Positions 28,042 through 49,603 of a DNA stretch of 64,000 nucleotides are shown piece by piece (position 1 is the stretch's first letter; each line of letters opens with the position of its first letter). A program made the position numbers and the translations under genes. Under the pieces are notes generated by a model. That model saw only the letters and a program-made list of their open reading frames with translations, did not search any database and was not told the DNA's origin. Source of the DNA: an uncultured delta proteobacterium. GTDB lineage: Bacteria; Desulfobacterota; BSN033; UBA1163. Location of the stretch: assembly GCA_963695895.1 (NCBI GenBank), contig CAVOIK010000011.1:34561-98560 (forward strand), in the 5' to 3' direction.

Positions 28042-29181
28042 ATGGAAATGGATACTGCGCAGCCCCAGACCATTGAGAAATCCAGAAGTCTCCTCGATAC
28101 GATTCAGGTCGCGTTTCTGCTCACCGATTCCCACGCAAAGATTCTCCATGCCAATCACCATGCGGAATCTCTGTTCGGATACAAGACAGCAGAAATGCTG
28201 GGGCAACGGCTCCGAGTCCTTTTCCTGGAGGACGATCTGATTTATTTCCTCCCCAACATCATCTACCTGACCCTTTACAAGGATGGGTTTGACGGAGAGG
28301 CTCTTCTCAGACGAAAGGATGGGTCGAGGCTTTTTGTTCGTCTCTTCAGTACTTCGTTCAAAGAAGAGGGCGAAACATTCCTTACGTTTTCCATTCAGGA
28401 GATTCAGAGGCTTAAGAAACTGGAGAGAGAGAGATTGGAGTCGGAGCGATGGGAGAGTCTCGGAAGAATGGTTGAAGAAATTGCCCATCAGGTTCGCAAT
28501 CCTGTTGTCTCGATTGGGGGATACACGAAGCGTCTTCAAAAGGTCTTTCCATCCTCTCCCAAAGGCCAATCTTACCTTGAGCAGATCGTTCACGAGACGA
28601 ATAGACTTGAGACCATGATTCGACGTCTGGAAGAATATGTCCATATTCCGAAACCCATCTATGGAAGAGAGAACATGCACGAGGTTGTCGAAACGGCGCT
28701 TCAATTCTATTTCAAAGAAGCAACAGAACATGGGATTTCCATGACAGTTGAAACAAAGGGTGTTCGCGAGAATGGGTACCTGTTCATTGACAGAGACCTG
28801 GTCACACGGGCTTTTTCGCAAGTCATCAAGAACAGTCTCGAGGCAGTGATTCTGGGGTCCGTCGGAAAGCAGAGACGGGTGATTAACGTTGCCGTCTTTG
28901 GCGACTCAGAACACCTCGGGATCGCTGTGGTCGATAAGGGGCAAGGGATTTCCAAAAAGAATGTTGGCTTTGTATGTGAGCCGTTCTTCTCAACCCGGCC
29001 TGATCATGTGGGGTTGGGATTAACCCTCGTACGAAGGGTCATGGGAGAACATGGTGGAATCGTTCAGGTTGAAAGCAAATTGAAACAGTCGACCACAGTC
29101 ACCCTCCTATTTCCAAGAGATCGTCGTCGTAAGATCCGCCGAGAGCTCCTTTCCCCGGAAGCCGCGTCGACGCGGGATTGA
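28042..29181 (+). CDS. PAS-domain sensor histidine kinase
   Basis: A PAS-like N-terminus is followed by the HisKA H-box EEIAHQVRNPV and HATPase motifs (DKGQGIS, GLGLTLV). No response regulator gene lies next to it. Confidence 0.85.
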   Translation: MEMDTAQPQTIEKSRSLLDTIQVAFLLTDSHAKILHANHHAESLFGYKTAEMLGQRLRVLFLEDDLIYFLPNIIYLTLYKDGFDGEALLRRKDGSRLFVRLFSTSFKEEGETFLTFSIQEIQRLKKLERERLESERWESLGRMVEEIAHQVRNPVVSIGGYTKRLQKVFPSSPKGQSYLEQIVHETNRLETMIRRLEEYVHIPKPIYGRENMHEVVETALQFYFKEATEHGISMTVETKGVRENGYLFIDRDLVTRAFSQVIKNSLEAVILGSVGKQRRVINVAVFGDSEHLGIAVVDKGQGISKKNVGFVCEPFFSTRPDHVGLGLTLVRRVMGEHGGIVQVESKLKQSTTVTLLFPRDRRRKIRRELLSPEAASTRD

Positions 29182-29215
29182 TCGAGATTCGCCCGTTGAA
29201 TTCTCGATTGACCGG

Positions 29216-32160: not shown

Positions 32161-32305
32161 TACATGAAGGAATCGAGCGTTCTTGGCCCCCGAGACGGGA
32201 GCCGTACGGCGGGTTCAAACAATAAGAGAGAGCTCTGTCGAGTTTTGAAAAGCGAGCGTTGTACGAGTTAGACTTTTTTGAATTGAGGCAGTTTTGAAAT
32301 CAAGT

Positions 32306-32352
32306 CGGGGCGTAGCGCAGCCTGGTTTAGCGCGCCTGCCTTGGGGCAGGAG
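32306..32352 (+). pseudogene. Near-identical copy of the 5' two-thirds of tRNA-Pro (unit B), with 1 nt missing from the anticodon loop and no T-arm or acceptor 3' strand
   Basis: cggggcgtagcgcagcctggtttagcgcgcctgccttggggcaggagg is identical to 32513-32560 except for the loop deletion. Confidence 0.75.
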
Positions 32353-32512
32353 GGTGGCGTCGCGACGAATAAGGAGCGACTCTTGGCACGCCGCCGAGTG
32401 GTGAGCCGGCCGGACCGGCGTTCAAATAAGGAGGAACTCTTGCCACCCCGAGAGGTGAGGGGCCGGAGGCGTTCAACGATAAAGGCACTGGCACTTCGCA
32501 GACGATCAAGGT

Positions 32513-32591
32513 CGGGGCGTAGCGCAGCCTGGTTTAGCGCGCCTGCCTTGGGAGCAGGAGGTCGGCAGTTCAAATCTGCTCGCCCCGACCA
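32513..32591 (+). tRNA. tRNA-Pro (anticodon TGG), CCA encoded
   Basis: Manual cloverleaf: acceptor cggggcg/cgccccg, anticodon stem cctgc/gcagg, loop cttggga, T-loop ttcaaat. Confidence 0.85.
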
Positions 32592-33051: not shown

Positions 33052-33127
33052 GAGCCGTTAGCTCAACAGGTAGAGCAACTGACTCTTAATCAGTAGGTCG
33101 CAGGTTCGATTCCAGCACGGCTCACCA
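33052..33127 (+). tRNA. tRNA-Lys (anticodon CTT), CCA encoded, with an A-A mismatch in the T-stem
   Basis: Acceptor gagccgt/acggctc, anticodon loop ctcttaa, T-arm gcagg-ttcgatt-ccagc. Confidence 0.85.
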
Positions 33128-33287
33128 GATTTACCAAGTTCCGGGAACCAAGCTTCAAGGGAATTTCAAGTTAAAAACGGGCTCCAAGACCAATTGGAGA
33201 AACCACTCAGACTTCTTTTCCCCTCTGCCTTAGCTAAAAAGCTCAAGACGTCAGTCTGCTGATGCTGACACCCTCAAGTCATAAGAA

Positions 33288-33872
33288 ATGAGATCTGGCA
33301 ATACAGTAAGCCATAAGATCTACATGGGTTATGGAGATGAGACCGCAAAGGCGTATACGGCAACAAGTGCCAAGGTGCAGGTAGGTTACGGGATCTTGCT
33401 TGTAGAACATACTGAGATTGCCGAAGTCGAAAATGTTTTGGCCCAGCTTAAGAAACAATTCAATTTTGCCGATAAAGAGTTGCACGCCTCTAAAATATTC
33501 CATCCAAAGATGAGAATTAGAACGTATGGTTCATAGGTTGCTGAAACTGGGGTCTTTTCATTTATGAGCCAAATCATAAATGCAGTGGAGAACGTCTCTC
33601 ATATGGTATTTTGCACAGGAATGGTTAGAAAAGGAGAGCACAAGAGAACCACGACATATATGGAGCATATTTCTGGAAATGGAGATCAGAGAATACCGAT
33701 AGTCCTTCCCTCTTTTAACATAGAACACCATTCCAGGTTCTGCTTAGGCGGCTGTTCAGATATGATTCTTAGGCACGTCAAACAGGGCGTAAAAGAGATC
33801 ATATTGGACCCGGAAACAACGAAGGTTGAAAATATTATTGTTAATAACCGAGGCAGAAAGAACATTCCCTGA
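33288..33872 (+). pseudogene. Hypothetical protein (weakly DUF3800-like) interrupted by an in-frame TAG at 33537
   Basis: ORFs 33288..33536 and 33564..33872 are in the same frame and are separated only by one TAG. The motifs GYGDET and ELHASKIF faintly resemble DUF3800. Confidence 0.35.
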
Positions 33873-34560
33873 AACAATTAGGGGAACAATACACAGAGCA
33901 TGAGGGGATTGCGAAAAAGCCAAATCTGAAGACCATTAAGAGAGAAGACGTTAATCTTTATCCATTGCTTCAGTTGAGACTTATTTACTTATGTGTGCAT
34001 TCAGTTTCATACGGATGAGCGAACCACATTCAGAAGAATGTTCATACCCCTGTACGAAAAGATACAGCTAAGGGCTACTCGGCCAAACGGAGGATGCCGC
34101 CACCGAGAGGAAGGCCTTTCACCCTGAATCCCCTTTCCACTGAAAATCGTTATGCCCACCCAGTTCTCCCTGATCAAGCAGGTCATAGAGTGACCGCCTG
34201 AACATGCTCAACATCTTGTTCTCCGTCGGCTGAATCCTTTTTCAATCAGATTCATTTTTTAAAGGGATCTTTAATAAATGGTAATTTTTCGATCTCTGGT
34301 CTTAATGATTTTAAAGATTTAGGCCCTCGGATTTTCCAGGGTTTAATAAATGGTCCCGATCCCGCTGTAAAAAGAAGGATTTGAGATCAAATGCAGCCGT
34401 CCTCCTCATACTCTTGAGCATCTCATCTAAAGGTTTATTCTTGGCGCGTGGAGCACTTCCTGTAGTCGTGATTTGTGAAAATCCCATCTCCATGTAACAC
34501 TTCAACCGATAATAAGTAGAACGAATCCGGGGGTTGATTTGATTATCAAATCATACTATC

Positions 34561-35625
34561 ATGGGATCAAAAAACATTAAACACCGTGAGTTAGGAATGA
34601 GCGGAGTATTGTTATTCTTGATGATATTTCTTACAAGCTGTATGAAGAATGATACTGTCGCGTCTGATGGTAATACAGACAAAATCTTAGTTGAAGAAAG
34701 AAACGTAAATGGAATCTTTGCCCATATAACAACCAATGATTCCGTCCACCACATCGTGAATCATCCATCATTTAAAGGCTTTGGTCAGTTTATTCTGCCG
34801 TTGGACCGTGGTACATACGACGGGAATATGCAACTTAGTCGTGTGGGGTCTCTTTTGCCGTATCACAGCCAGGTAGAACCAGAGGCTGTAGTGAAGACAA
34901 TCAATTACATGATTGACCAAGTAGCCGAAGGAAAAACCATATTCTACAACTTCTACACCGAGCGGCAAAAGCTGGAAAAACCAGCTAAACAGAATACGGG
35001 CCTTTTCTTTTTCAAGGGTAAGCCGGGAGCCCCATTTGCCATCGTCTGCCCTGGCGGTGGCTTTTCCTATGTCGGTTCTGTTCATGAAGGTTTCCCTCAC
35101 GCTATAGAACTGAGCAAAAAAGGATATAATGCTTTCGTCCTGCAATACCGCGTGGGAGGTGAGCAGAGAGCCTGCGAAGATTTAGCGGCAGCTATATCTT
35201 ATATTTTTCAGCATGCTGAATCATTGGGCGTAAGCACGAAAGATTACTCGGTGTGGGGTAGCTCAGCGGGGGCAAGAATGGCCGCACAAATCGGTTCATA
35301 CGGCCCTGCCGGATACGGTGATTATGATCTTCCGAGACCTGGCGTTGTAGTCATGGCATATACCGGTCATTCGTCCTTCACCAAAAATGATCCACCGACT
35401 TTTGTGGTTCAAGGCGAAAATGACGGAATCGTTAATGTATCCACTGTTGACAGGCGTGTAGATGCCATGCGAAAGGCCGGAATAGAAGTCGAGTATCGTA
35501 AGTATCGGAATGTAGGCCATGGTTTTGGACTCGGCATCGGTACGAATGCCGAAGGATGGATAGAATACGCCGTTAAATTTTGGGAAAAGCACATATCTGA
35601 GAGCGTCCTGAGGGACGCCCATTAA
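34561..35625 (+). CDS. Alpha/beta hydrolase (esterase/lipase-like), probably a lipoprotein
   Basis: Oxyanion region CPGGGF, nucleophile elbow GSSAG, and catalytic His in NVGHGF. The N-terminus has LFLMIFLTSC. Confidence 0.8.
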   Translation: MGSKNIKHRELGMSGVLLFLMIFLTSCMKNDTVASDGNTDKILVEERNVNGIFAHITTNDSVHHIVNHPSFKGFGQFILPLDRGTYDGNMQLSRVGSLLPYHSQVEPEAVVKTINYMIDQVAEGKTIFYNFYTERQKLEKPAKQNTGLFFFKGKPGAPFAIVCPGGGFSYVGSVHEGFPHAIELSKKGYNAFVLQYRVGGEQRACEDLAAAISYIFQHAESLGVSTKDYSVWGSSAGARMAAQIGSYGPAGYGDYDLPRPGVVVMAYTGHSSFTKNDPPTFVVQGENDGIVNVSTVDRRVDAMRKAGIEVEYRKYRNVGHGFGLGIGTNAEGWIEYAVKFWEKHISESVLRDAH

Positions 35626-35626
35626 A

Positions 35627-35922
35627 TTATTGATTTGTTCCGGCCAACATCTCTGTAAAATGCGTATCATTAAACTTCTCGTAAACCTTCCGGGATAAGT
35701 TCAATACCTGCTGCCTCACTCTCTCCGAAATCCGATTCGGAGGAGGACGGCCTACGTTGCCGTGAATCAACCCTCTTGCTCCTTTCTGCTTCACAGCTCT
35801 CCAAATCCGTTTGGCCTGCCGGTAGGACACACCTATCTTCTCCGCCTGCCTCCCTTCAAGGTGATCTTTCCTCCCTCCACCAAACCCATCAGGTGCCACC
35901 TCTGTAACTGCCTCTGACTCAT
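35627..35922 (-). pseudogene. N-terminal fragment of an ISNCY-like transposase (HTH part only, frameshifted, catalytic domain missing)
   Basis: MSQRQLQRWHLMGLVEGGKITLK.../...GVSYRQAKRIWRAVKQKGARGLIHGNVGRPPPNRI...FNDTHFTE. Confidence 0.6.
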
Positions 35923-36134
35923 CAGAATCTTGTCCCCTTCCATAGGGGACATTTTACCTTGGCAGTTAGAGGGGACGCTTTCCCTTTGCTAACACAACGA
36001 AACAATTTTGCCGCAATTTTGCCTTGACAAAGAATATCATCTGTGATAATAAAGGATGCGTTATTTCTACCGGTTTATCTAAACAAGAAAACTACCAAAG
36101 AAGGTTGTACATTCAACATTAGAAAGGAGGGCTC

Positions 36135-37214
36135 ATGATGGCAAAACAAATTAGCCGGCGAAGTTTCCTAGAAAAATCCATAATGGCGGGGGTAGGAGTT
36201 TTGGGAGGTTCCCTATCTCTTAACAAAAAGGCTTATGCAGCAGCTAAACCGGAGATAATTATTGGATTTGATGGAGGAAGTTGGCAAGAGTTCCTTGATC
36301 AAATTTTTAGCCAGCCATTTGCCAAACAGTATAATTGTGAAATCTCTTATGATATAGGAACAGAGCTGGATAGGATAACCAAGCTCATTGCAGAAAAAAG
36401 CCAGCCTAGGGTTTGTTGCTCCAAGTTAGATACCACAGATATAGACAAATGTATTGATCTGGGGATCGTAGGAAAAATGGACCCTAAAAATGTACCAAAT
36501 CTGAAAGACATAGCTGGTGCGTTTAAGAATGAGTATTGGGCAGCAAATATAGTTGCGACTTTTGGGTTGGTTTACAATACAGAAAAAATCAAGGAAGGAA
36601 TAACAAGTTGGTGGGACCTTTGGAATCCAAAATACAAGGGTAAGGTGGGTATCCCTGTTTATGAATGGATGGGAGAAGCATTCTTGCCAATAATCAACTT
36701 TTTGGCAGGCGGTACTCCCAAAAATCTTGATCCTGGAGTGAAAAAATTGAGGGAGTACGTCAAAGAGATGAACCCAATTTTTATTTCCAATACGGATCAT
36801 GGAATTCAGCTTTTTACTCGGGGGGAGTTGTGGGCCGCGCCATTCTGGGACGGAAGAACTAGGAATCTGCAGGATAACAAGGTGCCAGTTAAGTTCGTTT
36901 TCCCTAAAGAAGGGGCTGCACCTCTTGGATATGGTCTTGCTTTGAACAAAGTGGCTAAAGCTGAAGTTAGGGAACTAACTGAGAAATACATTAATTATAC
37001 TTTGGATCCTGAGAAATTGATTCCATACTGTAGATTGACCAAATACCCTCCTACAAACTTAAAAGCTATGGAAAAACTTCCGCCTGATTTAGAAAGAATT
37101 AAGATCCCTAGGGAGGCGATGGATAATATGCTGCGGGTTGACTACTATGGCTATTCAAAAGTTACGGATAATGCCCTCGAAAGATGGAATAAGGAAATTG
37201 CAACTGCTGGTTGA
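36135..37214 (+). CDS. ABC transporter substrate-binding protein (PotD/family-1 type) with a Tat-like signal
   Basis: SRRSFLEKSIMAGVGVLGG resembles a twin-arginine signal. The fold length is SBP-like, and the ABC genes are adjacent. Confidence 0.75.
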   Translation: MMAKQISRRSFLEKSIMAGVGVLGGSLSLNKKAYAAAKPEIIIGFDGGSWQEFLDQIFSQPFAKQYNCEISYDIGTELDRITKLIAEKSQPRVCCSKLDTTDIDKCIDLGIVGKMDPKNVPNLKDIAGAFKNEYWAANIVATFGLVYNTEKIKEGITSWWDLWNPKYKGKVGIPVYEWMGEAFLPIINFLAGGTPKNLDPGVKKLREYVKEMNPIFISNTDHGIQLFTRGELWAAPFWDGRTRNLQDNKVPVKFVFPKEGAAPLGYGLALNKVAKAEVRELTEKYINYTLDPEKLIPYCRLTKYPPTNLKAMEKLPPDLERIKIPREAMDNMLRVDYYGYSKVTDNALERWNKEIATAG

Positions 37215-37236
37215 TTTATCACTTTAAAATAGTATT

Positions 37237-37279
37237 CGGGGAATGTCAGGACCGCTCCTTGCATTCCCCGACCTTTTTG
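37237..37279 (+). terminator. Intrinsic terminator after the SBP gene
   Basis: cggggaatg...cattccccg followed by acctttttg. Confidence 0.6.
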
Positions 37280-37393
37280 TATTCCTTGGGCAACCGAGGA
37301 GTATCTTTTGCCATGATCACTTCCAACCGATAATTCGTAAATATTTTCCGCTGCTCGCGTTTTTACCCAGCACTTTACATAAGGGTTAGGTCC

Positions 37394-38551
37394 ATGTACA
37401 ATTTGCTAAATTACGATCGATATGAAAAAGGTTTCTCGGAGAAAACTTATAACACGGATACGAACTATGTTTATTTAGAAAAAATCTCAAAACACTTTGG
37501 CTCAGTAAATGCGGTTGATAATATTAATTTGGAGATTAAGAAGGGCGAATTTCTTTTTCTCCTTGGACCCAGCGGATGCGGTAAAACAACTACACTCCGG
37601 ATCATTGCTGGCTTTGTCAAGCCTGACACTGGGAATGTATTTATCAATAATCAACTCATGAATCCCGTTCCAGTAAGCAAAAGGAACTTAGGGATGGTTT
37701 TCCAAAATTATGCCTTATTCCCGCACCTGACCGTTTTCGAAAATATCATCTTTGGATTAAGATTACGAAAAGCTAAAAAGGATGCCGTAGATTCAAAATT
37801 CAAAGACATGGTTCGACTTGCTAGACTCGATGAAACATTTAAGGATCGATACCCAACGCAACTGAGCGGGGGTCAACAACAGCGAGTAGCATTGGCCAGG
37901 GCTTTAAGTTGTTCCCCTGACGTATTGCTTTTAGATGAACCGTTTGGCGCACTCGACCGCAAATTGCGCAAAGAAATGCAAGTAGAGCTAAGGGAACTCC
38001 AAAAAACATTAGGCATCACAACGATATTTGTGACTCACGACCAGGAAGAAGCTCTCACCATGAGCGATCGCATTGCTGTGATGGAGTTCGGGAAAATTAT
38101 ACAAATCGATACACCCGAAGGTATTTACGAGAAGCCTAGAACAAAGTTCATAGCCGATTTCATCGGGGAAACAAATGTTTTCAAGGGAAAGGTTTCAGAA
38201 ATTTCTCAAGGCATCCTCAAAATTGAGATACGCGATAAAATGACCATTCATGCGGTTGCCCATCGATACAACTACGAGAAGGGCAAAGAAGTTTATGTCG
38301 CGATAAGGCCAGAAAAAGTGGCGTTTCAGTATGATAGACCTCTTACCTCAGTTAATTTATTTGAGGGAACTATTACGAACGTTTTGTATCTTGGTGACAA
38401 GACCCATTACTACATTAGGCTAACAACCGGTGAGAATATTGTAGCTTGCAGGCAAAATACTGAAATCAACCTCTCGAAAGATCATTATATTACTGGCAAA
38501 AAGATATTTGTTTGTTGGAATATTGAAAATACTCTTGTCCTTGAAGGTTAG
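37394..38551 (+). CDS. ABC transporter ATP-binding protein (PotA-like)
   Basis: GPSGCGKTT, LSGGQQQRVALARAL and LLLDEPFGALD, with a TOBE-like C-terminus. Confidence 0.9.
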   Translation: MYNLLNYDRYEKGFSEKTYNTDTNYVYLEKISKHFGSVNAVDNINLEIKKGEFLFLLGPSGCGKTTTLRIIAGFVKPDTGNVFINNQLMNPVPVSKRNLGMVFQNYALFPHLTVFENIIFGLRLRKAKKDAVDSKFKDMVRLARLDETFKDRYPTQLSGGQQQRVALARALSCSPDVLLLDEPFGALDRKLRKEMQVELRELQKTLGITTIFVTHDQEEALTMSDRIAVMEFGKIIQIDTPEGIYEKPRTKFIADFIGETNVFKGKVSEISQGILKIEIRDKMTIHAVAHRYNYEKGKEVYVAIRPEKVAFQYDRPLTSVNLFEGTITNVLYLGDKTHYYIRLTTGENIVACRQNTEINLSKDHYITGKKIFVCWNIENTLVLEG

Positions 38552-38592
38552 AATTCCCAAAAGTTACTTACTCTCTCACCAACTGTTTTAAA

Positions 38593-39402
38593 TCAACCCA
38601 ATTGCATTGTCTTTCCAAGACCTAGAACTCTATCTATAATTAATGCCGCTACGAATACAAATATGATCTGAATTGCAGATATCGATGCGATGACAGGACT
38701 ACTTGACCATTGAAGATATGAGAATAGCTGTATAGGTAGAGTCACCGTCTTCGGACCTGTAACGAATATTGAAGCGTCCAATTCCCCAAAGGAGGTTACA
38801 AATACGAACAGTAATCCCGCAATCACTCCAGAAGCCATTAAGGGCAAAGTAATTTTGGTGAAGATCTGAAACCGACTCGCACCCAATATTTCAGCCGCCT
38901 CCTCTATTGCTACATCTACTCCAGAAAGGCTGGCAATAACCGTCCGCATTATATAAGGCGTTGTCAGAATAACATGACATATCAAGATTGACAAAAAGGT
39001 TCCCCTCAGCTTAAGGCTTACAAAAAAATGTAACATTGACATGCCAATTATTATTGATGGAATTAGAATCGGTGAGAGCAGGAAAGTCTCCACGGCGTTC
39101 TTATACCTAAAGTTGAACCTAACCACTGCATAGGCGCTTGGGATTCCAACGATAGGCGTCAGGATCGATGCTACAAGAGCCAGTTGAAGAGAAAATCTCA
39201 AGGCTTTCACAAAGCCGGATATTTTGAAAAACTCATAGTACCACTTCAGCGAAAAGTGACTTGTTGGAATTACGAGTGAGTCAGTTGGATTGAAAGAAAC
39301 AAGTACTATAATAATGACCGGCGCAAGAAGATATGCATAAATAATGAACAAAACACAGCCAAATACGAAATAATTCAGTTTCTCAGCAGTGTCAGTTCTC
39401 AA
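38593..39402 (-). CDS. ABC transporter permease (PotC-like)
   Basis: 269 aa with six predicted transmembrane segments and an EAA-loop-like EEAAEILGASRFQIFTKITLP. Confidence 0.85.
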   Translation of the reverse strand: MRTDTAEKLNYFVFGCVLFIIYAYLLAPVIIIVLVSFNPTDSLVIPTSHFSLKWYYEFFKISGFVKALRFSLQLALVASILTPIVGIPSAYAVVRFNFRYKNAVETFLLSPILIPSIIIGMSMLHFFVSLKLRGTFLSILICHVILTTPYIMRTVIASLSGVDVAIEEAAEILGASRFQIFTKITLPLMASGVIAGLLFVFVTSFGELDASIFVTGPKTVTLPIQLFSYLQWSSSPVIASISAIQIIFVFVAALIIDRVLGLGKTMQLG

Positions 39403-39406
39403 CCCA

Positions 39407-40288
39407 TCACCCTCTTGTTGTTTTTCCTCTGACCGCCTTAAGATAGAACATTATTATTGCGCTAGTTACCACCATTAGAATAATGGCCATTGTCGAACCA
39501 AATGGCCAATTCCGGACCGTTAACATTTGCTGCCAAATTAATACTGCAATCATTATGTTCTTGGGCCCGCCCAAGAATAAAGGCGTTGATAAGGCACTAA
39601 TCGACAATGTAAGGACTAAAAGGGATCCAGAAATCATTCCTGGAACGCTTAAAGGCAAAATTACTTTGTAAAACGTTGTGATCCGAGTAGCTCCCAGTAC
39701 TCTTGCAGCTTCCTCCTGTGAAATATCAATCTTTTGAATGGAAGACATCAAGGGTAAAACCATGAATGGTAGTAAGATTTCCACAATTCCAATGATGACA
39801 GCCCCCTCTGTATAAAGAATTCTAACTGGCGAATCAATGATACCGATTCCTAGAAGAAATTTGTTTACAATTCCTTCACTTCCAAGAAGAATTATCCACC
39901 CATACGTCCGGACAACAACTCCCACCATAAGTGGCATTATAACAAGAAACAGATATAAGCCTTTCTTGTTTGATTTCGTTCTCGCTAAGAAATAGGCGAC
40001 AGGATAACCGAGAATAAGGCATAACAAAGTTGACATAACGCCGATTTTAAAACTGTTCAAGAGTATCCTTAGATAAAAAGAATCAAATAGAAACCTGGCA
40101 TAGTTATGCAGGGTGAACTCTTGAATATAAATCTTGCTACTATCAAATTTATAAAAACTAGTGGCTAAGGTAGAAAACATGGGAATCATCAGAAATAAGA
40201 GCACAAGCAGAATCCCCGGTGCCAAAAGGAACAAATGATTTTTACCGTGGATTAATCGCGGGATTTTCATTGGAATTTGTATACCCAA
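39407..40288 (-). CDS. ABC transporter permease (PotB-like)
   Basis: 293 aa with EAA loop QEEAARVLGATRITTFYKVILP. Confidence 0.85.
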   Translation of the reverse strand: MGIQIPMKIPRLIHGKNHLFLLAPGILLVLLFLMIPMFSTLATSFYKFDSSKIYIQEFTLHNYARFLFDSFYLRILLNSFKIGVMSTLLCLILGYPVAYFLARTKSNKKGLYLFLVIMPLMVGVVVRTYGWIILLGSEGIVNKFLLGIGIIDSPVRILYTEGAVIIGIVEILLPFMVLPLMSSIQKIDISQEEAARVLGATRITTFYKVILPLSVPGMISGSLLVLTLSISALSTPLFLGGPKNIMIAVLIWQQMLTVRNWPFGSTMAIILMVVTSAIIMFYLKAVRGKTTRG

Positions 40289-40427
40289 AATTCTTTCAAT
40301 AAATTTTCTTTTGTCGTCTTTTCAAGCTCTACCTTTCTTATAGCAGCCTTTCATAGCGAATGAATCTTCCCTTTACAATTCTAACAGGAGAAAGACATCC
40401 GCCGCGTATATCCTGAAAATCCAAGCG

Positions 40428-41228
40428 CTAAAAGATTGTGCTCCATCCTTCGGTATAATCTCTTAAATCAATCGCCTTCAATTTCTCAATCTCACCAACT
40501 AGACCTTTTATTTCATTTTCGAAAAGCCTTCTCCCTTTGTCTAGCCTCGCAAGCAAAGCATTTCCAAAAATACCGGACTTGGTCACAGATTTTGTTCTAG
40601 GTAATCCATAGAAAGTCATCTGTCTAAACAGTTGGTCTTCCTGGAAGACGAACAGGCCAGAACTTGATTCGGGGATTTCCTCCCTAGCCCGCTCCATCCT
40701 GACTAAATTCGGCGCGGATACCAACACTCTTGATGTTTCACCTTCGTCTGCATGGTAGCGAATCTTGTCTTCCAAGAAATCTTCTTTTTCATCTGGCAAT
40801 GAAGTGATATATGCCTGGCCAATTATTGTATCTTTTAGTCTATTCTTCAATTTGACTATGGCAACATCTAGTGTTGCGTTGTTTCCTCCATGTCCGTTCA
40901 GCAGCAAAATCTTCTTGAATCCATGATGTGAGCAACAAATGCACACGTCGAAAATTAAATGGATTAGGGACTCAGGGGTCAGACTTAATGTTCCTGGAAA
41001 ATCGATGTGATTTTGTGAAATGCCATATTTTATGATAGGTGCAACCAGGACCTCACATTTCTGGGCTGCCTTTCGAGCCAAATATTGGACATTGATAGAA
41101 TCAGTCGCCAATGGAAGATGCGGTCCGTGTTGTTCAATTGATCCGATAGGGACTATTATTAAGTTTTCCCTTTTTAAATAATCCTCGACGTCTTTCCAGG
41201 TCATCTCCTCGAGTAAAACAGTGCTCAT
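40428..41228 (-). CDS. Creatininase-family amidohydrolase
   Basis: VPIGSIEQHGPHLPLATD and GHGGN motifs are typical of the creatinine amidohydrolase family. Confidence 0.75.
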   Translation of the reverse strand: MSTVLLEEMTWKDVEDYLKRENLIIVPIGSIEQHGPHLPLATDSINVQYLARKAAQKCEVLVAPIIKYGISQNHIDFPGTLSLTPESLIHLIFDVCICCSHHGFKKILLLNGHGGNNATLDVAIVKLKNRLKDTIIGQAYITSLPDEKEDFLEDKIRYHADEGETSRVLVSAPNLVRMERAREEIPESSSGLFVFQEDQLFRQMTFYGLPRTKSVTKSGIFGNALLARLDKGRRLFENEIKGLVGEIEKLKAIDLRDYTEGWSTIF

Positions 41229-41316
41229 CCGAATCTCCTCCTTTCCGGGTTTAATAGTGAGAAATGTTCAGAGTTTCCCTCTAAATGATCAAAGGGCCTT
41301 TTGGAGACGCTAAAAA

Positions 41317-42471
41317 TCAGATGTCTATTATTTTGCCCCTTTTGGCCACGAATTTGACTCGATCTATAGATGTCATGTCTTCAATGGGATTTCCTGCCAC
41401 TGCGATACAGTCAGCCCATTTACCCTCTTCTAACGTACCAATCTGGCGTTCCAATCCGCAAAGCTCGGCCGCAAATTTGGTTGCTGATTGAATTGCCTCG
41501 ATAGGGGTGAACCCTATGTTCACAAGTTCCGTCATCTCATTTGCCAACTGGCCGTGAAGTTCGTCACAGCCCACCACAACCTTGACACCTATTTCTCGTG
41601 CTCTTCTAATTGTATCAGCGTAAACTGATCTTGCTTCATTACACTTTTCGCGGAAAAAAACTGGAACTTTTGGATCAGTAGCCCCTGCTCTAATTACACC
41701 AGTGGTTACTACAAGGAATACACCCTTTATCGCCATTAATGCTAGATCTTTTTCCTTGAGATAAATCCCATGTTCAATAGAGTCTATTCCTGCTTCAATG
41801 GCCCACTCTGCTCCTTCTCCTCCATGGATATGAGCTGCTATTTTTCTTCCGCTCCTATGGGCTTCCTCCACAGCTACTTCGATCTCCTCCCGTGTGTAAT
41901 CCGTTGAAATAGGGGAGGATCCCTCCGTTGAAATACCCCCACTAATCATAATTTTGATTAAATCCGCTCCCACTTTGACTTGCTCGCGAACTGCTTTTCG
42001 CACTTCATATGGTCCATCTGCTTCCCTTCCCTCAAACCATACGTGTCCACCTGTTCTCGTGATAAACCGGCCACTGACTAACAAGCGAGGGCCTGAAATG
42101 ATCCCCTCCTCTATTGCTCTCTTTAGATGGATATCGATAAAATTCTTTTCACCCATGTCTCTCAGAGTTGTAATGCCTTTTCTGAGGATTTCTCGGGCAT
42201 TCTTCACTCCTCTTAAAGCTGTATAGACATCAGCCTCCCTCGACTGAGCCTCTTCATCACCCAAATCCGTGCCTAAGTGATCATGACTGTCAATTAAGCC
42301 AGGCAAAACTGTATACGACTCCAAATTGATCGTCTGAATTGTTCCATCAACAGCGATATTATCTCTTTTGCCCAACTTAGCAATGCTTCCATCTTTTATT
42401 AAGACAACTGCATTGATTATGGGAGCGGAACCCGTTCCGTCAATGATGCGACCGCAATTCAGAGCTATCAT
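41317..42471 (-). CDS. Metal-dependent amidohydrolase (PF01979-type)
   Basis: The metal motif in PGLIDSHDHLG, the AAHIHG motif, and a C-terminal GTLEEGKWAD. Confidence 0.8.
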   Translation of the reverse strand: MIALNCGRIIDGTGSAPIINAVVLIKDGSIAKLGKRDNIAVDGTIQTINLESYTVLPGLIDSHDHLGTDLGDEEAQSREADVYTALRGVKNAREILRKGITTLRDMGEKNFIDIHLKRAIEEGIISGPRLLVSGRFITRTGGHVWFEGREADGPYEVRKAVREQVKVGADLIKIMISGGISTEGSSPISTDYTREEIEVAVEEAHRSGRKIAAHIHGGEGAEWAIEAGIDSIEHGIYLKEKDLALMAIKGVFLVVTTGVIRAGATDPKVPVFFREKCNEARSVYADTIRRAREIGVKVVVGCDELHGQLANEMTELVNIGFTPIEAIQSATKFAAELCGLERQIGTLEEGKWADCIAVAGNPIEDMTSIDRVKFVAKRGKIIDI

Positions 42472-42633
42472 TTGATCACTCCCAGTGGCAGAGGAAAAAC
42501 AACGAGCGATGTGGCTTCCTCTTGGCCTAATTTGGTATTTTCCATTTCTGGCAATTCAAAACAGCTAACGAGAAACTGACCCCGTAAATTCTTCCGACAG
42601 TTACCACCACTTAAAGGCCAAAAGTTGGATTAT

Positions 42634-43608
42634 TTATGGTTTTCCAATTTGAAAAATCGAATCTCCGGCTGTCACAAAAGGCTCTTTGGACACTGTTAAA
42701 ATTATTCCTTCCATCGGAGCTTTCACCGATTCTAACTTCTCGCCAAAAATCGTATATAATTTGGCTATAACATCGCCTTTCTTCACTCTTTCCTGAATTT
42801 TCACCGTCGGGACAAATTGTCCACCGTGAGGAGCCATCATCCACACCCAATGTTTTAGCATAATATAGTTGTCTTTAAAAGCAAAAGGCCCATCTAGCAT
42901 CTTCAGGAACTTCATTACATTTGTAATTCCATCAATTACGGCTGACACCGCTTCAGAATTTGCCAAAGCTCCACTTCCACCAGCTTCCACAATGATCCCA
43001 GGTTTTCCTTTTCGATTTGCCTGAACGCAAAAAGCATTTTTCAAAATGTCTGACTTACACGGATAAATGAGTTCAAATCCAAACGCCCGTGCCAACGCAT
43101 TAGATTTCTTGGCTGTCCTAGAAGCGTCTTCGCTATAGATTGTCCAAAACGTGTCAGGGTTGTGGCCGGTATGGAAATCTATCAGATAATCCGCATTCTT
43201 GATAAATGTCCGGAATAGATTATACGCCATGATCTCTGTGAAATTGCCATCTTCTTTTCCCGGAAAAACGCGATTCAGATCCGGAACACCGTATTTGCTG
43301 TGAGGTGAAAACCGCCTCCCATCCCGAAAGGCGGATATATTAAGAGCTGGGAAACAAATTAATGTTCCCATCATTTCCTTAGGATCCAATTTTTTGGACA
43401 CTTCCAACATTCCTAAAGAGCCACAATATTCGTTACCGTGAATACAACATTGTACCCAAAGGCGAGGCCCAGGCTTACGACCAACTAGCACGATTAATGG
43501 GGTATAAACTGGAGTCCCGTCGTTATAGGAGCCGATAGAGAGGATAGCCCTTTCCTCGTCGCCCAGGTTTAGCAACCACGGAACCAAGAGTTAACTTTTC
43601 CATCATAC
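42634..43608 (-). CDS. Succinylglutamate desuccinylase/aspartoacylase (AstE/AspA) family deacylase, indel near 43560
   Basis: QCCIHGNEYCG zinc-binding motif. The N-terminus MMEKLTLGSVVAKPG starts at 43608 behind a ggaggtgg RBS and lies in another frame. Confidence 0.7.
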
Positions 43609-44068
43609 CACCTCCAACGTGAAATATTCTTGGTAACGCCCTTCTTCGCTTTTTTCGATTAGCATAAAGGGGAGTCTTTGTCAACGAATTTTAGAGGAAT
43701 TTTAGAGGCCCTCAGAGATTCCGCATGCTGGGGTCGGAAGGGGGATAAGACCGGCGATAAGGCATGGGTTTTAAATGGGTACCAGGGTAGAAGGGAGTCA
43801 AGAGCCAAGAGAAGAGCGTTTTCGTGGTGACTTTTTGAGGTAGGGATCGAAAGAGTGGTGCAAGAAGGCAGAGTTGTCCCTCTGATTCTTGGAGAGGGTT
43901 TGCAGGAAATTCCAGCGAGACAACCAGTAAGGGAAGGGTTATCCCCCTCCTTTGAGCCATGGAGCGAGAGTGTCCATGGTGGCAAAGCCAATAGCGAGAT
44001 CCACTGCAACGCTGATGAGTGTGAGATGGGCACGGCGTTGGGGTTTGAGGCTTCCAAGTCCGTGTGTC

Positions 44069-44262
44069 TCCATCAGTAGTAGGTCTGCTCCGTGACTCCG
44101 AGCTTGCGGCTCACTTCACCCGCTGTGCTCCCCTAGCTTAGAAGAACTTCTGCTTCTCTCAGCTTCCCGATGATTTGCTCTGCGGTAAACCCCTTCTTCT
44201 TCCTGATCCCCTATACCTATTCTCAGCCCATATTCTAACTCTTCCTCTGGACCGATTTTCGG
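44069..44262 (-). mobile_element. IS3-family left-end relic A (degenerate orfA HTH fragment)
   Basis: About 194 bp are homologous to 46569-46765. It encodes the degraded sequence KKGFTAEQIIGKLREAEVLL. Confidence 0.65.
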
Positions 44263-44376
44263 ATTGAAACCGTCCGCAGATTACTTGAGGACCCATTGCG
44301 GGACTGCCGAGAATGTGCTATACATTGCCAAGATGTGACACAATGACACAAAGCGTCACGAAGAGGAGTGAAGAGC

Positions 44377-44606
44377 ATGAAGAAACTGACCATTCGTGGA
44401 AACACGGCAGGCGCTTGTCGCACCTGGACCGTCTTCTGTCTGGGGAGGGAGAGGTCACCATCACACGTCGCGGTGAGGCGATTGCTCGTTTGGCACCAAT
44501 CTGCAAGAAAAGGTCCATACCCTCCCACGGAGATCTTCGGGAAAGCATGCCGAGGATGCGGAAGGGAAGCGAGAAGCTTATCCGTAAGGATCGTGATGCC
44601 CGATGA
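44377..44606 (+). CDS. Type II antitoxin (Phd/YefM- or VapB-like), indel near 44410
   Basis: MKKLTIRGNT..., then in the other frame LSGEGEVTITRRGEAIARLAP. It overlaps the vapC start by 4 nt. Confidence 0.55.
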
Positions 44607-45048
44607 GCGAAGTGACTTATTTTGATACGAGCGCGCTGGCCAAATGGTATCTCAATGAAGAGAGATCCCAGGATGTCGAACGATATATCCAAGAACATGG
44701 GCCGGTTGCGATCAGCGACTTAACGGTGGTAGAAATGCGTTGTCTTCTGGCTAGACGACGGAAAAGAGAAGGCCATATCGATCTAAAGATGGAGTCACGG
44801 GCTTTCGCAACGTTCCAGGAGATATTCGCCAGAATTTCCTGACATGCCATCCATTTCCGGAAGGTCTCGCTGCAGGGACTGTCAACCTTGTCTCTGCGCA
44901 TCCGGATATACCCCTCCGGACACTTGATGCATTCCACCTGGTGATTGCGAAAACGATCCAGGCGGACAAGCTTGCAACAGCAGACCGAACCATGGCGGCG
45001 GCTGGCAAGGCGATGGGTCTATCTGTTGTTCGGTTTGGTGGTCGATAG
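44603..45048 (+). CDS. vapC: PIN-domain toxin VapC, indel near 44825
   Basis: The YFDTSALAKWYLNEE N-terminus carries the PIN acidic residue. The C-terminal part (LRTLDALHLVIAKTIQADKLATADRTMAAAGKAMG) is in a second frame. Confidence 0.7.
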
Positions 45049-45063
45049 AACCTCACAGGATCC

Positions 45064-45107
45064 CTTAACCAAGTAGGTCGCAGGTTCGATTCCTGCACGG
45101 CTGACCA
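45064..45107 (+). repeat. 44-nt copy of the 3' part of tRNA-Lys (anticodon loop to CCA), a putative att-site repeat
   Basis: cttaaccaagtaggtcgcaggttcgattcctgcacggctgacca compared with 33085-33127 cttaatcagtaggtcgcaggttcgattccagcacggctcacca. Confidence 0.75.
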
Positions 45108-45721
45108 TTTATTTTCAAGCACTTGCCTGCTATGACGCATTATCCACTAGAAATGGACTTCCAACGTGGCAGGAATTGTCACGTTGGCTTCAGGATGGCA
45201 AGTTCATCGTGCTCCCCATAGGTTTGATTCCGTGCCCTTCTTTAGCTGAAACAACCGTCTATCCTCACGCCTAGATGCCGAGAAAAGTCACTCAAAAACG
45301 ACCAAATGAGCGGAAACTTACCATTTGAATCTCTCGAAAAAAAAGTAAGTCATAACAAACCTTATAATTCCAAGTGCTTAAGCTAATGAGCAACGGTCAA
45401 GTATCTGGCATCTGAATTGCAGTTGACTTGGACCTTTGTGGGATGAACCCAATTAAGAGTTCGAATTGACAAGACGAAAAAGAAGCAGGGATTCGTAAGT
45501 AAGTAAATAGCTTTGGCTGAGTTTCGGTGGGAACGTGCTTAAGTTAGTCAATCAATAACGAACTTAGTGTCAGGAATAACTAATGTTCCATTGTTTCGAT
45601 TCATTGAAATTGCTCAGCCAAAAAGCATCTATGAAAGGGGGTGGTCACGGACGAGAGTGTTATATCGGTCGCAGAGGTGCACGAGTTGTTTATCAAACTA
45701 AATCGCTAAAGGAGGAACGCT

Positions 45722-46057
45722 ATGGAGGAAAGAAGAAAAGGTCTTGTTAAGGGTTTTTACATGATGATTGCTGTTATGGTCATGTTTCTTATGGGTGCCG
45801 TAGATAAGGCTGATGCAGCTTCAGCTAGCATTCTGATTCCCGTTGCTGAGTTCACAAACGATGGCTTTGTCAACACTGTCCCTGGTTCCTACTTTAAATC
45901 TTTTAGTGGAGGGTATCTCGAGGGGATTGCCAACGACCCATGCCTTGTTGCACCGGTGAAAATTCCAGGCACTGCCACAAAAATAAACAAAGTAATAGTT
46001 TACTTGACAGACGATGGGACCGGTTCACTTCCCTTTTTTCCAGCTTACTGCTATTGA
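45722..46057 (+). CDS. Hypothetical secreted protein (possibly extended by a frameshift near 46050)
   Basis: It has a signal-peptide-like N-terminus and an aaaggagg RBS. I recognise no family. Confidence 0.4.
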   Translation: MEERRKGLVKGFYMMIAVMVMFLMGAVDKADAASASILIPVAEFTNDGFVNTVPGSYFKSFSGGYLEGIANDPCLVAPVKIPGTATKINKVIVYLTDDGTGSLPFFPAYCY

Positions 46058-46439
46058 CATGGCAACAGCGTTCGCTGAGGACTATGTATTTGCTAGACGT
46101 CACAACCGGGACCCCTACCATACAGGCGAATAGAATTGCCTCTTATTAAGAAGACTTTGGTGAAAGGACGGGTTTATCAGCTCGGGACATGTCTTGATGC
46201 CGGCCAATTTCTATACGGGGCAAAGGTAGTTTACACGGTGCCGTAACACCAATTTACAGGCCATTGTGAACGAAGGCCCAGGGGCTGGATCATAGGTCCG
46301 TCCCCTGGGCTAGGTATCATCTCCGTTTCCCTCTTTGAACCCCCTCCCCATTGTCAAGACAAAAAAGCGGGGTGTATTTGGTGCATTGCTTGAGAAGCCC
46401 GTCCTGGGTTTAGGGGGATCGGTTGGTTGAAATAGACCT

Positions 46440-46776
46440 CATAAGGAGTTCGATTTCCTAAATTATTTCCTATTTGCTGCATCCTGCTGCACTGCAGAAT
46501 GAACTACCAGTCTTTTTAGGCCAACTTGATATGCCCTTTTGTTCGCTGCCACGTCCGTGCTCCCGCCCCCCATCGGTAGTAGGTCTGCTCCGTAATCCCG
46601 AGCTTGCGGCTCACTTCGCCCACTGTGCTCCCCTGACCCAGAAGAACCTCTGCTTCTCTCAGCTTCCCGATGATTTGCTCTGCAGTAAACCCCTTCTTCT
46701 TCATCCTGACCTCCCCTTACTTATTCTCAGTCCTATTCTAACTCATCCCCTGGACCGGTTTTCGGGGGGCAGGTCA
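46440..46776 (-). mobile_element. IS3-family left-end relic B with a truncated orfA
   Basis: ORF 46516..46704 encodes MKKKGFTAEQIIGKLREAEVLLGQGSTVGEVSRKLGITEQTYYRW, a typical IS3 OrfA HTH. There is no orfB. Confidence 0.75.
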
Positions 46777-46839
46777 GCTAAAGAAAATACTACAACGTAT
46801 ATTTATCCAACCCTATTGCGGCGGTCGCGGTCTATTTGT

Positions 46840-48021
46840 TTATTCTGATGACCATATTGGTTTCATCTCGGTCTTGAAGACTTCTGACATCAGCATAGAA
46901 CTTAATGGAGGACAGCCACCGACATATCGACCTCTATTCTTGTAGCGTTCAGTGCATACACCCACCAAAATCATCTTCTCTTTGGCTATTGGAGGCAGTT
47001 CATCGTGTTCACCTAATGTAAAAGTGAGATCTCTAATTTGGTCCAGTTTCTTTTGATCGTCCAAAACTTTTAAGAAGTAGAACATCATGCCTCTGCAACC
47101 CGTACACATTTTGTCACTCGATAGAAGTTTAAAATCCTGAAAACCTAACATCTTCTGGAAAGCCTCTGCAGAACTCTCAAATCTCCTCATCACATTCTCT
47201 ATGGTTTCTCCGACAACTTCGATATGGTCCATGCTCATCGTGCCAATCCCATGCTCTTCGGCCAATACCGCATCCTTCTGTTGTTTAGGGTCGATACCCA
47301 TTACCAATAAAGTTACTGTATCAACTGCGACCGGGTCCCTGCCCGCAAGGATCAGATCCATCTCAACTTCTTTGGAATAGGGATACCCCACCCCCTCTCG
47401 ACAAAATATCCCATCAACGATTGTCAGGTTGGGTTTCACGACAAGATTCAAATCGGCAATTCCCTGGAAAAGTCCATACTGACTATGAAACCTCTTCTTC
47501 TCTTGATCGGGTAACAAGCCTTTCATGTTTTTTAGACTCAAGGTCGCCGGCTCGTGATCATGGGTCTTAACGACAGGCAAACTGATGATGACATCGACTT
47601 CTTTGGCTAACTTAAATACCCTTACCTTCTTTAGAACCTTCGCTTCAGGATTATTGAGAATCATCGTTTTTGTCTTTTTCAGATTAACCACATCATATCC
47701 TTGATCACGAAGATCATAATACCCTGAAGCCCTAAATGCCGCTTCCCCGTTCACCCCTGGTGCTGAAGATTCTCCTATGATTGGCTTCGCGCCCATCTCG
47801 ACAACCAGATCGTAAACTGCCTTTGCCACCTTCGGATCTGAGACCTCTGTCTCTCCTGGTTTCAATTCATATGCAATATTAGGTTTGATAAGGACTCGAT
47901 CTCCTCTCGAAATAGTATCGCCTATACCCCCTATCAGACCAACGGCACGCTCAACCATCTCTCGGATCTCTTTTGCTTGAGGGTTCTTCGAGCCTTTGAC
48001 AATGGATACTTTGGTTTTCAT
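46840..48021 (-). CDS. DUF362 domain protein
   Basis: KVSIVKGSKN...RVLIKPNI...LPVVKTHDH...TIVDGIFCREG is typical of DUF362. The start was chosen at the ATG at 48021. Confidence 0.75.
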   Translation of the reverse strand: MKTKVSIVKGSKNPQAKEIREMVERAVGLIGGIGDTISRGDRVLIKPNIAYELKPGETEVSDPKVAKAVYDLVVEMGAKPIIGESSAPGVNGEAAFRASGYYDLRDQGYDVVNLKKTKTMILNNPEAKVLKKVRVFKLAKEVDVIISLPVVKTHDHEPATLSLKNMKGLLPDQEKKRFHSQYGLFQGIADLNLVVKPNLTIVDGIFCREGVGYPYSKEVEMDLILAGRDPVAVDTVTLLVMGIDPKQQKDAVLAEEHGIGTMSMDHIEVVGETIENVMRRFESSAEAFQKMLGFQDFKLLSSDKMCTGCRGMMFYFLKVLDDQKKLDQIRDLTFTLGEHDELPPIAKEKMILVGVCTERYKNRGRYVGGCPPLSSMLMSEVFKTEMKPIWSSE

Positions 48022-48244
48022 AAAAATGTTCTCCACATTTAAGATTACTCTACTATTCCGTCGGTCGTGAAAAAAATACAAGAGTGGTCATATTCCTGAA
48101 AATGTTTTTCCTCTAGCTTCATGAGAAAAGATCTGGCCACCTCGAATACACCGGTTCCTGTGTCATGGAGCAACATATCCGAGTGCCAGAAAACGTCTAG
48201 AGATCATTGCTCCTGTTGGAGTGGACACGGCGTACTCCTTTCCG

Positions 48245-49508
48245 TTAAGAAATGGCCACTTTTTTGGAACACACTTCGAGAAATTTCGCAGGAGCTCCCA
48301 TGCCGGCCATCCTCTTTAAGAATTTGACCGGATCCAGACACTCCGCAGCGATCACGCCTCTTGCAGCATTGCCCTCCACACACATCTTTGCTCCCAACGA
48401 CGGCCGGCAGGGAAACATAGATGTTTGAGGCACCGAATTTTCTATACATCTCCAGTTTTTCCTCTACCGTTTCAAAAAGGCTGAGAGGCAGAACGAGTTT
48501 GTATTCGATATCCTCTGCTCCCTTGCCTCCTTTCACCTCTATGGCAATACGGCCAATTATTTTCGGAGGAAGCTTAGCGGTGTTTTCGTCTTCGCTCAGA
48601 AAACTATCCACCGGAGGACGGACGATCTTCATCAATACGTCAATGGGCGCAACCTGCACACCCTTGACATCCACAGGGACAGAACTCGCGAATCCCGTCT
48701 TGATCAACGTGCCTGCTCTCGTATCGACGGTGTACTTGAAATCGCAGTACCGGATACCTTTGCCGATAAAATGTGGCAGGGTAATCGGTTCCTGGTGCTG
48801 ATGATATACAAGGGGAATCATTCCCACCGGCTCCGGAAAGTAATATTCTTCATAGCCGCTGAAGATGGGATACTTCTTGTACTGCCCACCCTCAAATATC
48901 GTAGGTTCCACCGCATAGCCCCAGAGTGCCCTGAAAGGAGACCATGTCGGTTCCCATGCGCTGACCACCTCAGTCGATGGGACCAGGTTCTTGCGACCCA
49001 ATCGAATGCGGATCTCATCAACACGGTCCAATTTGTCACAAACATATTTCGCCAGGATATTAACGATTCCCGGGGAAGCACCGGAACCCACCAAGGCAGT
49101 CAATCCGGCCCCTTTGAACTCACGATCAAGTCCCAGAGGTTTTTTCTCGATGATCTGGCCCAAAATGTTATCTCTCGCGCGTATGTCCATCAGACTGGGC
49201 TCGCCAAAGGAGGTGTCCACATAGTGAGCACCCACTTTCAGAGCCGTCTTCATGATATTGACGTCGAATGCGGTCAACGTCAGATTGATAATAACATCTA
49301 CGCCTTTGGCAGCTTTTTCAATATCCGCCATATCGCCGGCATCTACCTTGACGGCGGTGATTTTGTCACTGTGCAGCTTTTCTTTGACTTTATTTGCTAA
49401 GCCTAAGTCGATATCACTCAAAATAATTTTGGAAACCGCCTTGTCTCTGCTTAGAATCGAGGCACAAGGGCCGCCCTGTGCTCCAGCTCCAACGATCAAC
49501 ACTTTCAT
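48245..49508 (-). CDS. Saccharopine dehydrogenase-like NAD(P)-binding protein, indel near 48393
   Basis: MKVLIVGAGAQGGPCA Rossmann motif. The C-terminus continues in the frame of ORF 48245..48433. Confidence 0.7.
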
Positions 49509-49603
49509 TGTAGTTTCCTCCTTTAATCTATTTCTTAAATGTAATCGATTTGTCCCTTTTATCCATTCTATTTTTCAACATCGATGAGATCGAGCGAAAG
49601 TTC

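Follow-up and report, generated by a model that had tools for sequence, protein, structure and literature searches.

A probable degraded and immobilised island at the tRNA-Lys gene of an uncultured delta proteobacterium

A 12-kb interval of DNA from an uncultured delta proteobacterium is bounded on one side by a tRNA-Lys(CTT) gene and on the other by a displaced copy of the 3' part of that gene, which raises the question of whether the enclosed DNA arrived as an element integrated into the tRNA gene. The interval lies in a stretch of 64,000 nucleotides (nt), here called the window (G000:C11:34561-98560), which belongs to a metagenome-assembled genome (MAG) of 2.8 Mb in 38 contigs, with 74% completeness and 3.8% contamination. 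An earlier note on the window described the two tRNA-Lys sequences as the left and right attachment sites (attL and attR) of an island that had lost its integrase and was probably immobilised. The present analysis keeps this reading and holds it with good confidence: the interval is a degraded, immobilised tRNA-integrated island, an ordinary and well-known kind of bacterial genomic island. The attL/attR interpretation is borne out by the direct fragment of the 3' tRNA-gene DNA (tDNA), a break in composition at the 3' end of the tRNA gene, debris of mobile elements and DNA that relatives lack at this site. The relatives compared are other genera of the same family together with related metagenome contigs, and they provide 11 tRNA-Lys loci.

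The 43 nt of the resident gene from the anticodon loop to CCA (33085-33127) recur in direct orientation as 44 nt at 45064-45107. The recurrence is as first described, but the two copies are closer than the approximately five differences counted at that time, with three substitutions and one 1-nt indel. An ungapped core of the pair (33092-33127 versus 45072-45107) is identical at 34 of 36 positions (94%), and the chance expectation of a 21-nt core with at most three mismatches is 0.00 in the window. The displaced copy carries a G at position 72, which is unable to pair with G1, as is expected of an unselected relic. Further decayed tRNA-Lys fragments were sought by local alignment within the island, above all around the GC boundary at 43.6 kb, and in the DNA to the right, and the scores match those of shuffled sequence.

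The two copies also show the contrast in the T stem to which the earlier note had pointed. The stem of the resident tRNA-Lys reads GCAGG/CCAGC, with an A51-A63 mismatch, and that of the displaced copy reads GCAGG/CCTGC and is paired. The predicted fold of the resident gene is a normal cloverleaf whose T stem contains the internal mismatch (-23.6 kcal/mol, compared to -28.7 kcal/mol if the base is T). In all 11 related tRNA-Lys genes, compensatory changes keep the stem perfectly paired, with the arms GCAGG/CCTGC, ACAGG/CCTGT, GCCGG/CCGGC, ACTGG/CCAGT, GTAGG/CCTAC and TGGGG/CCCCG, and the A-A mismatch is unique to the window genome among the 12 genes. Because every relative retains a paired stem, the mismatch is to be read as a derived oddity of the window genome. 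It fits a 3' arm that was copied from the attachment site of an element (attP), free of pairing selection, with a crossover 5' of position 63. The proposal that the resident 3' part was supplied by the incoming element is thereby plausible and goes beyond what can be proved here; A63 might be a sequencing error. The C of 'GGTCGCAGG' is common to the resident tRNA-Lys and the displaced copy, and all relatives have T at this position, which probably means either that the attP of the element was already adapted to the lineage or that the crossover took place 3' of this base.

The baseline for composition was a set of 1192 windows of 12 kb taken across the genome. The 11.9 kb enclosed by the two tRNA-Lys copies contains 43.4% GC against a mean of 51.1% (standard deviation, 1.8), the lowest value of all 1192 windows (z = -4.2), and its tetranucleotide distance from the genome reaches z = +5.0. 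The AT richness that had previously been judged by eye is thus upheld by GC and k-mer measures alike, but not for the full interval, since the low-GC block ends at ∼43.6 kb. The drop begins right at the 3' end of tRNA-Lys, the region from 33.1 to 43.6 kb contains 40 to 43% GC, and the last ∼1.5 kb before attR is host-like, with 47 to 57% GC in 200-nt windows; this last part holds a relic of an insertion sequence (IS) of the IS3 family and the vapBC genes. GC at third codon positions (GC3) is 0.38 to 0.45 in the cargo genes, compared to 0.54 to 0.63 in the rph, histidine kinase, saccharopine-dehydrogenase-like and SBF transporter genes.

The tRNA array of the family has the order Pro-Arg-His-Arg-Lys(CTT)-Leu(TAG)-tig-clpP-clpX-Val/Asp, of which the window holds five tRNA genes, Pro(TGG), Arg(TCT), His, Arg(TCG) and Lys(CTT). 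tRNA-Leu(TAG) follows tRNA-Lys after 8 to 184 nt in 9 of the 11 related loci; the remaining two comprise one locus with the downstream block inverted and one with a 14.6-kb spacer between Lys and Leu. This spacer, from G011, was considered as a second island at the site and rejected, as it shows native GC, no repeat and ordinary resistance-nodulation-division (RND) efflux genes. The genes of the island are found at the site in none of the 11 loci. Exact-protein look-ups of flank and cargo genes yield no record of a close strain, and a metagenome scan with RNase PH gives a best match of 78% identity without synteny to the right flank.

The assembly of the window genome contains none of tRNA-Leu(TAG), tRNA-Val(TAC), tRNA-Asp(GTC), tig, clpP and clpX. 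Because the tRNA-Leu-tig-clpP-clpX block is absent from the assembly, the right flank from 45108 onward is not the ancestral neighbor of tRNA-Lys, and the 12 kb therefore forms the module nearest the tRNA gene in a composite accessory region that spans at least 31 kb. Of the bounds proposed earlier for the island, tRNA-Lys and the 44-nt copy are real, but the DNA beyond the copy is non-ancestral as well. This flank contains a 75-nt repeat, a second IS3 relic (copy B), genes for a DUF362 protein, a saccharopine-dehydrogenase-like protein and an SBF transporter, a toxin-antitoxin (TA)/defence array and an IS21 element. The only close orthologue of the DUF362 gene is 66% identical and occurs in one relative. 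The assembly probably breaks off short of the expected tRNA-Leu-tig-clpPX block because of IS21, which lies near the end of the contig (Table 1). Contig C3 carries the 75-nt sequence (45131-45217) twice more, at 29118-29183 and 24807-24881, and one of these copies directly abuts an IS3 left-end relic. The sequence was considered as a candidate for the right-hand inverted repeat belonging to the IS3 relic, and no inverted-repeat relationship was found.

Table 1. Features of the interval and its flanks (window coordinates)
Feature	Position	Strand or placement	Evidence
Resident tRNA-Lys(CTT)	33052-33127	+	ARAGORN, Rfam tRNA 68.7 bits, cloverleaf fold
Putative attL (tRNA-Lys 3' part)	33085/33092-33127	+	Repeat comparison
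Pseudogene of rare 279-amino-acid (aa) family, DUF3800-like motifs	33291-34085	+	8 homologue clusters, alignment, DNA match
Alpha/beta-hydrolase (esterase-like) lipoprotein gene, intact	34561-35625	+	Pfam BD-FAE, Abhydrolase_3, Peptidase_S9
ISNCY-family transposase, N-terminal fragment	35627-35953	-	NF033594, E = 8e-16, model positions 15-84/368
PotD-like solute-binding protein gene, intact	36135-37214	+	Pfam, NCBIfam
PotA-like ATP-binding cassette (ABC) ATPase gene, intact	37394-38551	+	Pfam, NCBIfam
Genes for PotC-like and PotB-like permeases, creatininase-family hydrolase, amidohydrolase (Xaa-Pro-dipeptidase-like) and AstE/AspA/DoeB-like deacylase, intact	38593-43587	-	Pfam, NCBIfam
IS3-family left end and orfA helix-turn-helix relic, copy A	44070-44262	-	Direct repeats D3, D8; HTH_Tnp_1 E = 1.7e-7
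vapB (Phd/YefM-like) and vapC (PIN) pair, one frameshift each	44313-45051	+	Pfam, tblastn pieces in different frames
Putative attR (displaced tRNA-Lys 3' copy)	45064-45107; 36-nt core 45072-45107	+	Direct repeat D7, 94%
Non-ancestral DNA right of attR	45108-64000		Pfam; 46-49% GC
IS3 relic, copy B, outside the island	46570-46778	Same orientation as copy A	Direct repeat
IS21 istAB (istB intact; istA apparently split)	61448-63754	∼350 nt from C11 contig end	Pfam

The integrase of the presumed element was described as lost, and every search made for it agrees. A hidden Markov model (HMM) search of the whole genome with PF00589 returns nothing on contig C11 at E <= 1, tblastn with nine integrases of the same genome finds no traces, and six-frame Pfam scans of the junction regions are empty, including 33128-34560, where no domain appears in any frame. 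All open reading frames (ORFs) of at least 60 aa in 33128-45063 were scanned with Pfam. Neither a relaxase, a coupling protein, a type IV secretion system (T4SS) nor an oriT module, as found in integrative and conjugative or integrative and mobilizable elements (ICEs and IMEs), was detected, and the interval offers only transport genes, hydrolases, IS fragments and a TA pair. There are likewise no Pfam matches to structural, packaging or replication proteins of a prophage or phage satellite. No matching pair of IS elements flanks the operon, as in a composite transposon; the ISNCY fragment is single, and the IS3 relics flank vapBC and the tRNA fragment and are without transposase. PADLOC and PHROGs give no assignment to a defence system for the ORFs of unknown function. 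The genes by which these classes are recognised were searched for without success, and the interval is thus, judged by its gene content, no ICE or IME, no prophage and no composite transposon.

The closest catalogued counterparts are the tDNA-integrated islands of Islander (Hudson, Lau & Williams 2015), for which a tyrosine integrase gene inside the island is required (PMC4383910). The window island shows the same regenerated tRNA gene at one end and the same displaced direct fragment of the 3' tDNA at the other, enclosing ∼12 kb of cargo of foreign composition. In contrast to the catalogued islands, it has no integrase; it would be filtered out as 'damaged' and is therefore a degraded, non-autonomous member of this kind. 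Islander also lists 125 tandem arrays of two or more islands at a single tDNA (PMC4383910). These are matched by at least 19 kb of accessory DNA beyond the internal tDNA fragment and by the displacement of the ancestral tRNA-Leu-tig-clpPX block. The later modules of the window, however, have neither an integrase of their own nor a further tDNA fragment within the contig, and a true tandem array is therefore not demonstrable.

The contents listed in the earlier note, namely, the ISNCY fragment, an IS3 relic, an interrupted gene, a distal vapBC pair and a transport/hydrolase cluster, have all been located. The cluster (36135-43587) consists of seven genes, all intact, whose NCBIfam equivalog scores lie below the cutoffs; NCBIfam esterase families match the esterase-like lipoprotein, again with scores below the cutoffs. 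All seven genes are also found on the metagenome contig L090 (548-7656, 39% GC) as a one-strand operon encoding the binding protein, the ATPase, the AstE-like enzyme, the amidohydrolase, the creatininase-like enzyme and two permeases, with 53 to 71% aa identity (66% for the PotD-like protein and 60% for the PotA-like ATPase). The combination of a PotABCD-type importer with enzymes of the creatininase, amidohydrolase and AstE/DoeB families is therefore a conserved module. The two versions differ in arrangement, as the five distal genes of the window are inverted relative to the genes of the binding protein and the ATPase, in contrast to the single strand on L090. In a search of 5.8 billion proteins, the amidohydrolase has no homologue closer than 55% identity, and the named homologues stem mostly from Firmicutes. 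A scan of genome contigs with the amidohydrolase for a source of the cargo yields no matches.

Next to the tRNA gene, in the place expected of an integrase, stands a pseudogene of a rare 279-aa family. The family is represented by eight homologue clusters, all from metagenomes, with 65 to 72% identity and a DNA match of 72 to 73% over 750 nt. The pseudogene is interrupted by a TAG codon (33534-33536), where the homologues have an invariant Lys (AAG), and by two frameshifts. The genome encodes a tRNA-Pyl(CTA) (C18:9251-9322), and TAG may not always terminate translation in this organism. Since the two frameshifts lie downstream of the TAG codon, it is argued from the sequence that the gene would be dead however TAG is decoded. 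On contigs L110-L112, the family adjoins a 414-aa integrase, Prim-Pol, DUF3987, a resolvase, ArdC and a DDE transposase, and these neighbors indicate that it travels on mobile DNA. Its only match in PHROGs is phrog_12603, of unknown function (E = 2e-4), and no matches are found in IMG/VR or in a scan of genome contigs.

The ISNCY fragment has an 84%-identical copy of 149 nt on contig C33. The two IS3 relics are 88 to 91% identical, carry an IS407-like end 'TGACCTGCCCCC' and are truncated at the same orfA codon, after YYRW. They bracket vapBC, the tRNA-Lys fragment and a gene for a small secreted protein, and further copies occur on C19, C3 and C21. The vapBC genes have a host-like GC content of ∼51 to 53%, and the PIN domain of vapC spans model positions 2-118/120 once the frameshift is bridged. 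Intact orthologues of 75 aa and 145 to 148 aa are found in 9 of 55 genomes of the family (65 to 78% identity for the 148-aa protein). In the window, no intact pair is present, as each gene is split by a frameshift, for which an assembly error is possible. A role of vapBC as the backbone of the tRNA-Lys element was considered and rejected: eight orthologous loci are without a tRNA, a tRNA fragment or an integrase within 6 kb, and their neighbors are all different.

A case from elsewhere in the genome bears on how such frameshifts are read. The DUF362 paralogue at G000:C6:63294-64148 contains ∼55 codons in a shifted frame between two compensating frameshifts, and the gene is intact in four relatives. 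It represents either a pseudogene or a local assembly error; some indels in the MAG may therefore be assembly artefacts, and pseudogene calls carry this caveat. The idea of in-frame stops in the DUF362 paralogues of many relatives was dropped, as tblastn shows no stops in the aligned region of the four relatives checked, and only the C6 copy of the genome itself is disrupted.

Integration into this tRNA array is not confined to the window genome. In G015:C73, tRNA-Lys(CTT) is followed ∼40 to 115 nt downstream by an 81-aa C-terminal relic of a PF00589 integrase (64 bits) pointing to the tRNA, and a 46-nt copy of the 3' part of tRNA-Lys lies 1.9 kb away. In G013:C7 (L094, 6912-13267), an element occupies tRNA-Arg(TCG), with a 47-nt direct repeat 6.2 kb away. 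It encodes an intact 383-aa integrase, convergent on the tRNA gene and ending 100 nt from it, and a Rep ORF2/G2P replication protein. No tRNA-Lys follows tRNA-Arg(TCG) on this contig. The two elements resemble the window island in their use of the same tRNA array and in the extent of the 3' duplication (46 to 47 nt, from the anticodon loop to CCA); in both, the tRNA gene is followed immediately by the integrase or its relic. They differ in their sizes of 1.9 and 6.2 kb, in having no cargo in common with the window and in still holding integrase sequence.

Two further fragments of the 3' part of tRNA-Lys are present in the genome itself. The fragment at C16:89958-90003 (46 nt, 89% identical) is of the ACAGG/CCTGT allele type and lies 174 nt from a 68-aa C-terminal relic of a tyrosine integrase; the pair (89635-90003), between a phosphoketolase and an aconitase-like gene, looks like a nearly erased integrative element. 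The fragment at C10:239484-239521 (38 nt, 92% identical) has no tRNA gene nearby and is followed by a RelE/Phd TA pair and a Fic-domain gene (to 241814). No two of the tRNA-Lys fragments resemble the same tRNA-Lys allele among those of the family. Because of these different alleles and the mobile-element contexts, the fragments on C16 and C10 are read as probable attachment scars of separate elements and not as a dispersed repeat. At the array of the window, the 5' part of tRNA-Pro has an exact 42-nt duplicate 207 nt upstream of the gene (32304-32345 and 32511-32552), so that tDNA fragments occur on both sides of the array.

What the sequence shows directly is the repeat, the break in composition, the missing ancestral neighbor, the genes present and the lack of an integrase. 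We infer an integrase-mediated insertion, the donor of the 3' half and the following order of events. A mobile element with a tyrosine integrase would have entered the chromosomal tRNA-Lys(CTT) gene by recombination between the 3' end of that gene and its own attP, a copy of the last 36 to 45 nt of tRNA-Lys, at a point somewhere from the variable loop to the 3' arm of the T stem. The tRNA gene would have been regenerated with a 3' end donated by the element (attL, 33092-33127), and the former 3' end would have been pushed 12 kb downstream (attR, 45072-45107). The element, or DNA added later, would have brought the low-GC operon of seven genes for a PotABCD-type importer and three amide/peptide hydrolases, along with the esterase-like lipoprotein gene. 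The integrase and any transfer genes would later have been deleted, the tRNA-proximal gene, vapB and vapC would have decayed, and IS elements would have inserted and become truncated. The module would now be fixed in place, with its cargo intact and presumably in use, within an accessory accretion that separates tRNA-Lys from the displaced tRNA-Leu-tig-clpPX block by at least 31 kb.

Several observations weigh against this reading. As neither an integrase nor a recombination-directionality gene is left, site-specific integration has to be deduced from its scars only. The empty site is drawn from other genera of the family and not from the same genus or a close strain, and, since the sequence that follows attR is non-ancestral, attR is not shown to abut the original chromosome. 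The MAG is 74% complete and has a double frameshift in at least one gene elsewhere in the genome, so that assembly errors could account for some of the pseudogene calls. The low-GC block stops ∼1.5 kb short of attR, and attR has an IS3 relic on either side (44070 and 46570) and could have been moved by them. The same features would be accommodated by a mosaic of unrelated events, in which 33128-45063 was never one mobile unit: the tRNA-Lys fragment and vapBC would stem from an older or other element and would have been placed through recombination between IS3 relics, and the operon would have come separately, for example, with ISNCY. The host-like GC of 43.6 to 45.06 kb, against 40 to 43% in 33.1 to 43.6 kb, suits this explanation, as do the two relics of the same orientation, truncated at the same point, on either side of the repeat. 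The ISNCY fragment between the esterase gene and the operon and the vapBC orthologues, which occur in relatives in many contexts and never beside a tRNA or an integrase, point in the same direction. A mosaic is nevertheless unlikely, as GC falls exactly at the 3' end of the tRNA, as insertion at an att site predicts, and neither the surroundings of 43.6 kb nor any other part of the interval yields a second, decayed tRNA-Lys fragment. Moreover, it still needs at least one integration into tRNA-Lys and thus differs from the island reading only in the number and order of events.

Contig C11 could also be a chimera joined at the conserved tRNA, with the low-GC stretch derived from another organism. 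Some contamination and missing sequence in the MAG, a composition switch precisely at a conserved tRNA gene and a join that no close relative confirms are in line with such an artefact, which is still very improbable: a single mis-join makes no second tRNA 3' copy 12 kb downstream, and the displaced copy has a lineage-specific base in common with the resident tRNA. In addition, GC heads back to the host value after 43.6 kb, and the ISNCY fragment, the IS3 relics and the 75-nt repeat have 80 to 93% identical copies on other contigs of the bin. Just as improbable is the 44-mer as a dispersed tRNA-derived repeat, a possibility already raised in the earlier note, or as the relic of a tandem tRNA-Lys duplication, in either case unrelated to the enclosed DNA. 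The additional fragments on C16 and C10 would agree with dispersal, but the genome holds only three copies, each like a different tRNA-Lys allele, and they stand in mobile contexts (the integrase relic on C16, RelE/Phd and Fic on C10). Tandem tRNA-Lys genes occur in no relative, and the fragments start at the anticodon loop, as the att sites of tDNA islands do.

For the degraded island preferred here, a wider and more tentative proposal can be made, which is rather doubtful as a whole. The sole tRNA-Lys(CTT) gene found would carry an element-donated 3' half with an A51-A63 mismatch that no relative tolerates, and the tRNA-Lys/tRNA-Leu junction would be a hotspot that has accreted at least 31 kb stepwise, including the downstream TA/defence array. 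If this is true, integration has left a lasting structural change in a tRNA of the host.

The main value of the finding lies in annotation and in the warning that integrase-based island finders would miss the window island; the current understanding of how genomic islands work is unchanged. The most compositionally deviant stretch of the genome is explained as horizontally acquired DNA with a precise left boundary, and the seven-gene importer/hydrolase operon is flagged as an acquired metabolic trait. For the family, the rph-rdgB tRNA array emerges as a recurrent landing pad for integrative elements, with cases at tRNA-Lys and tRNA-Arg in three genera.

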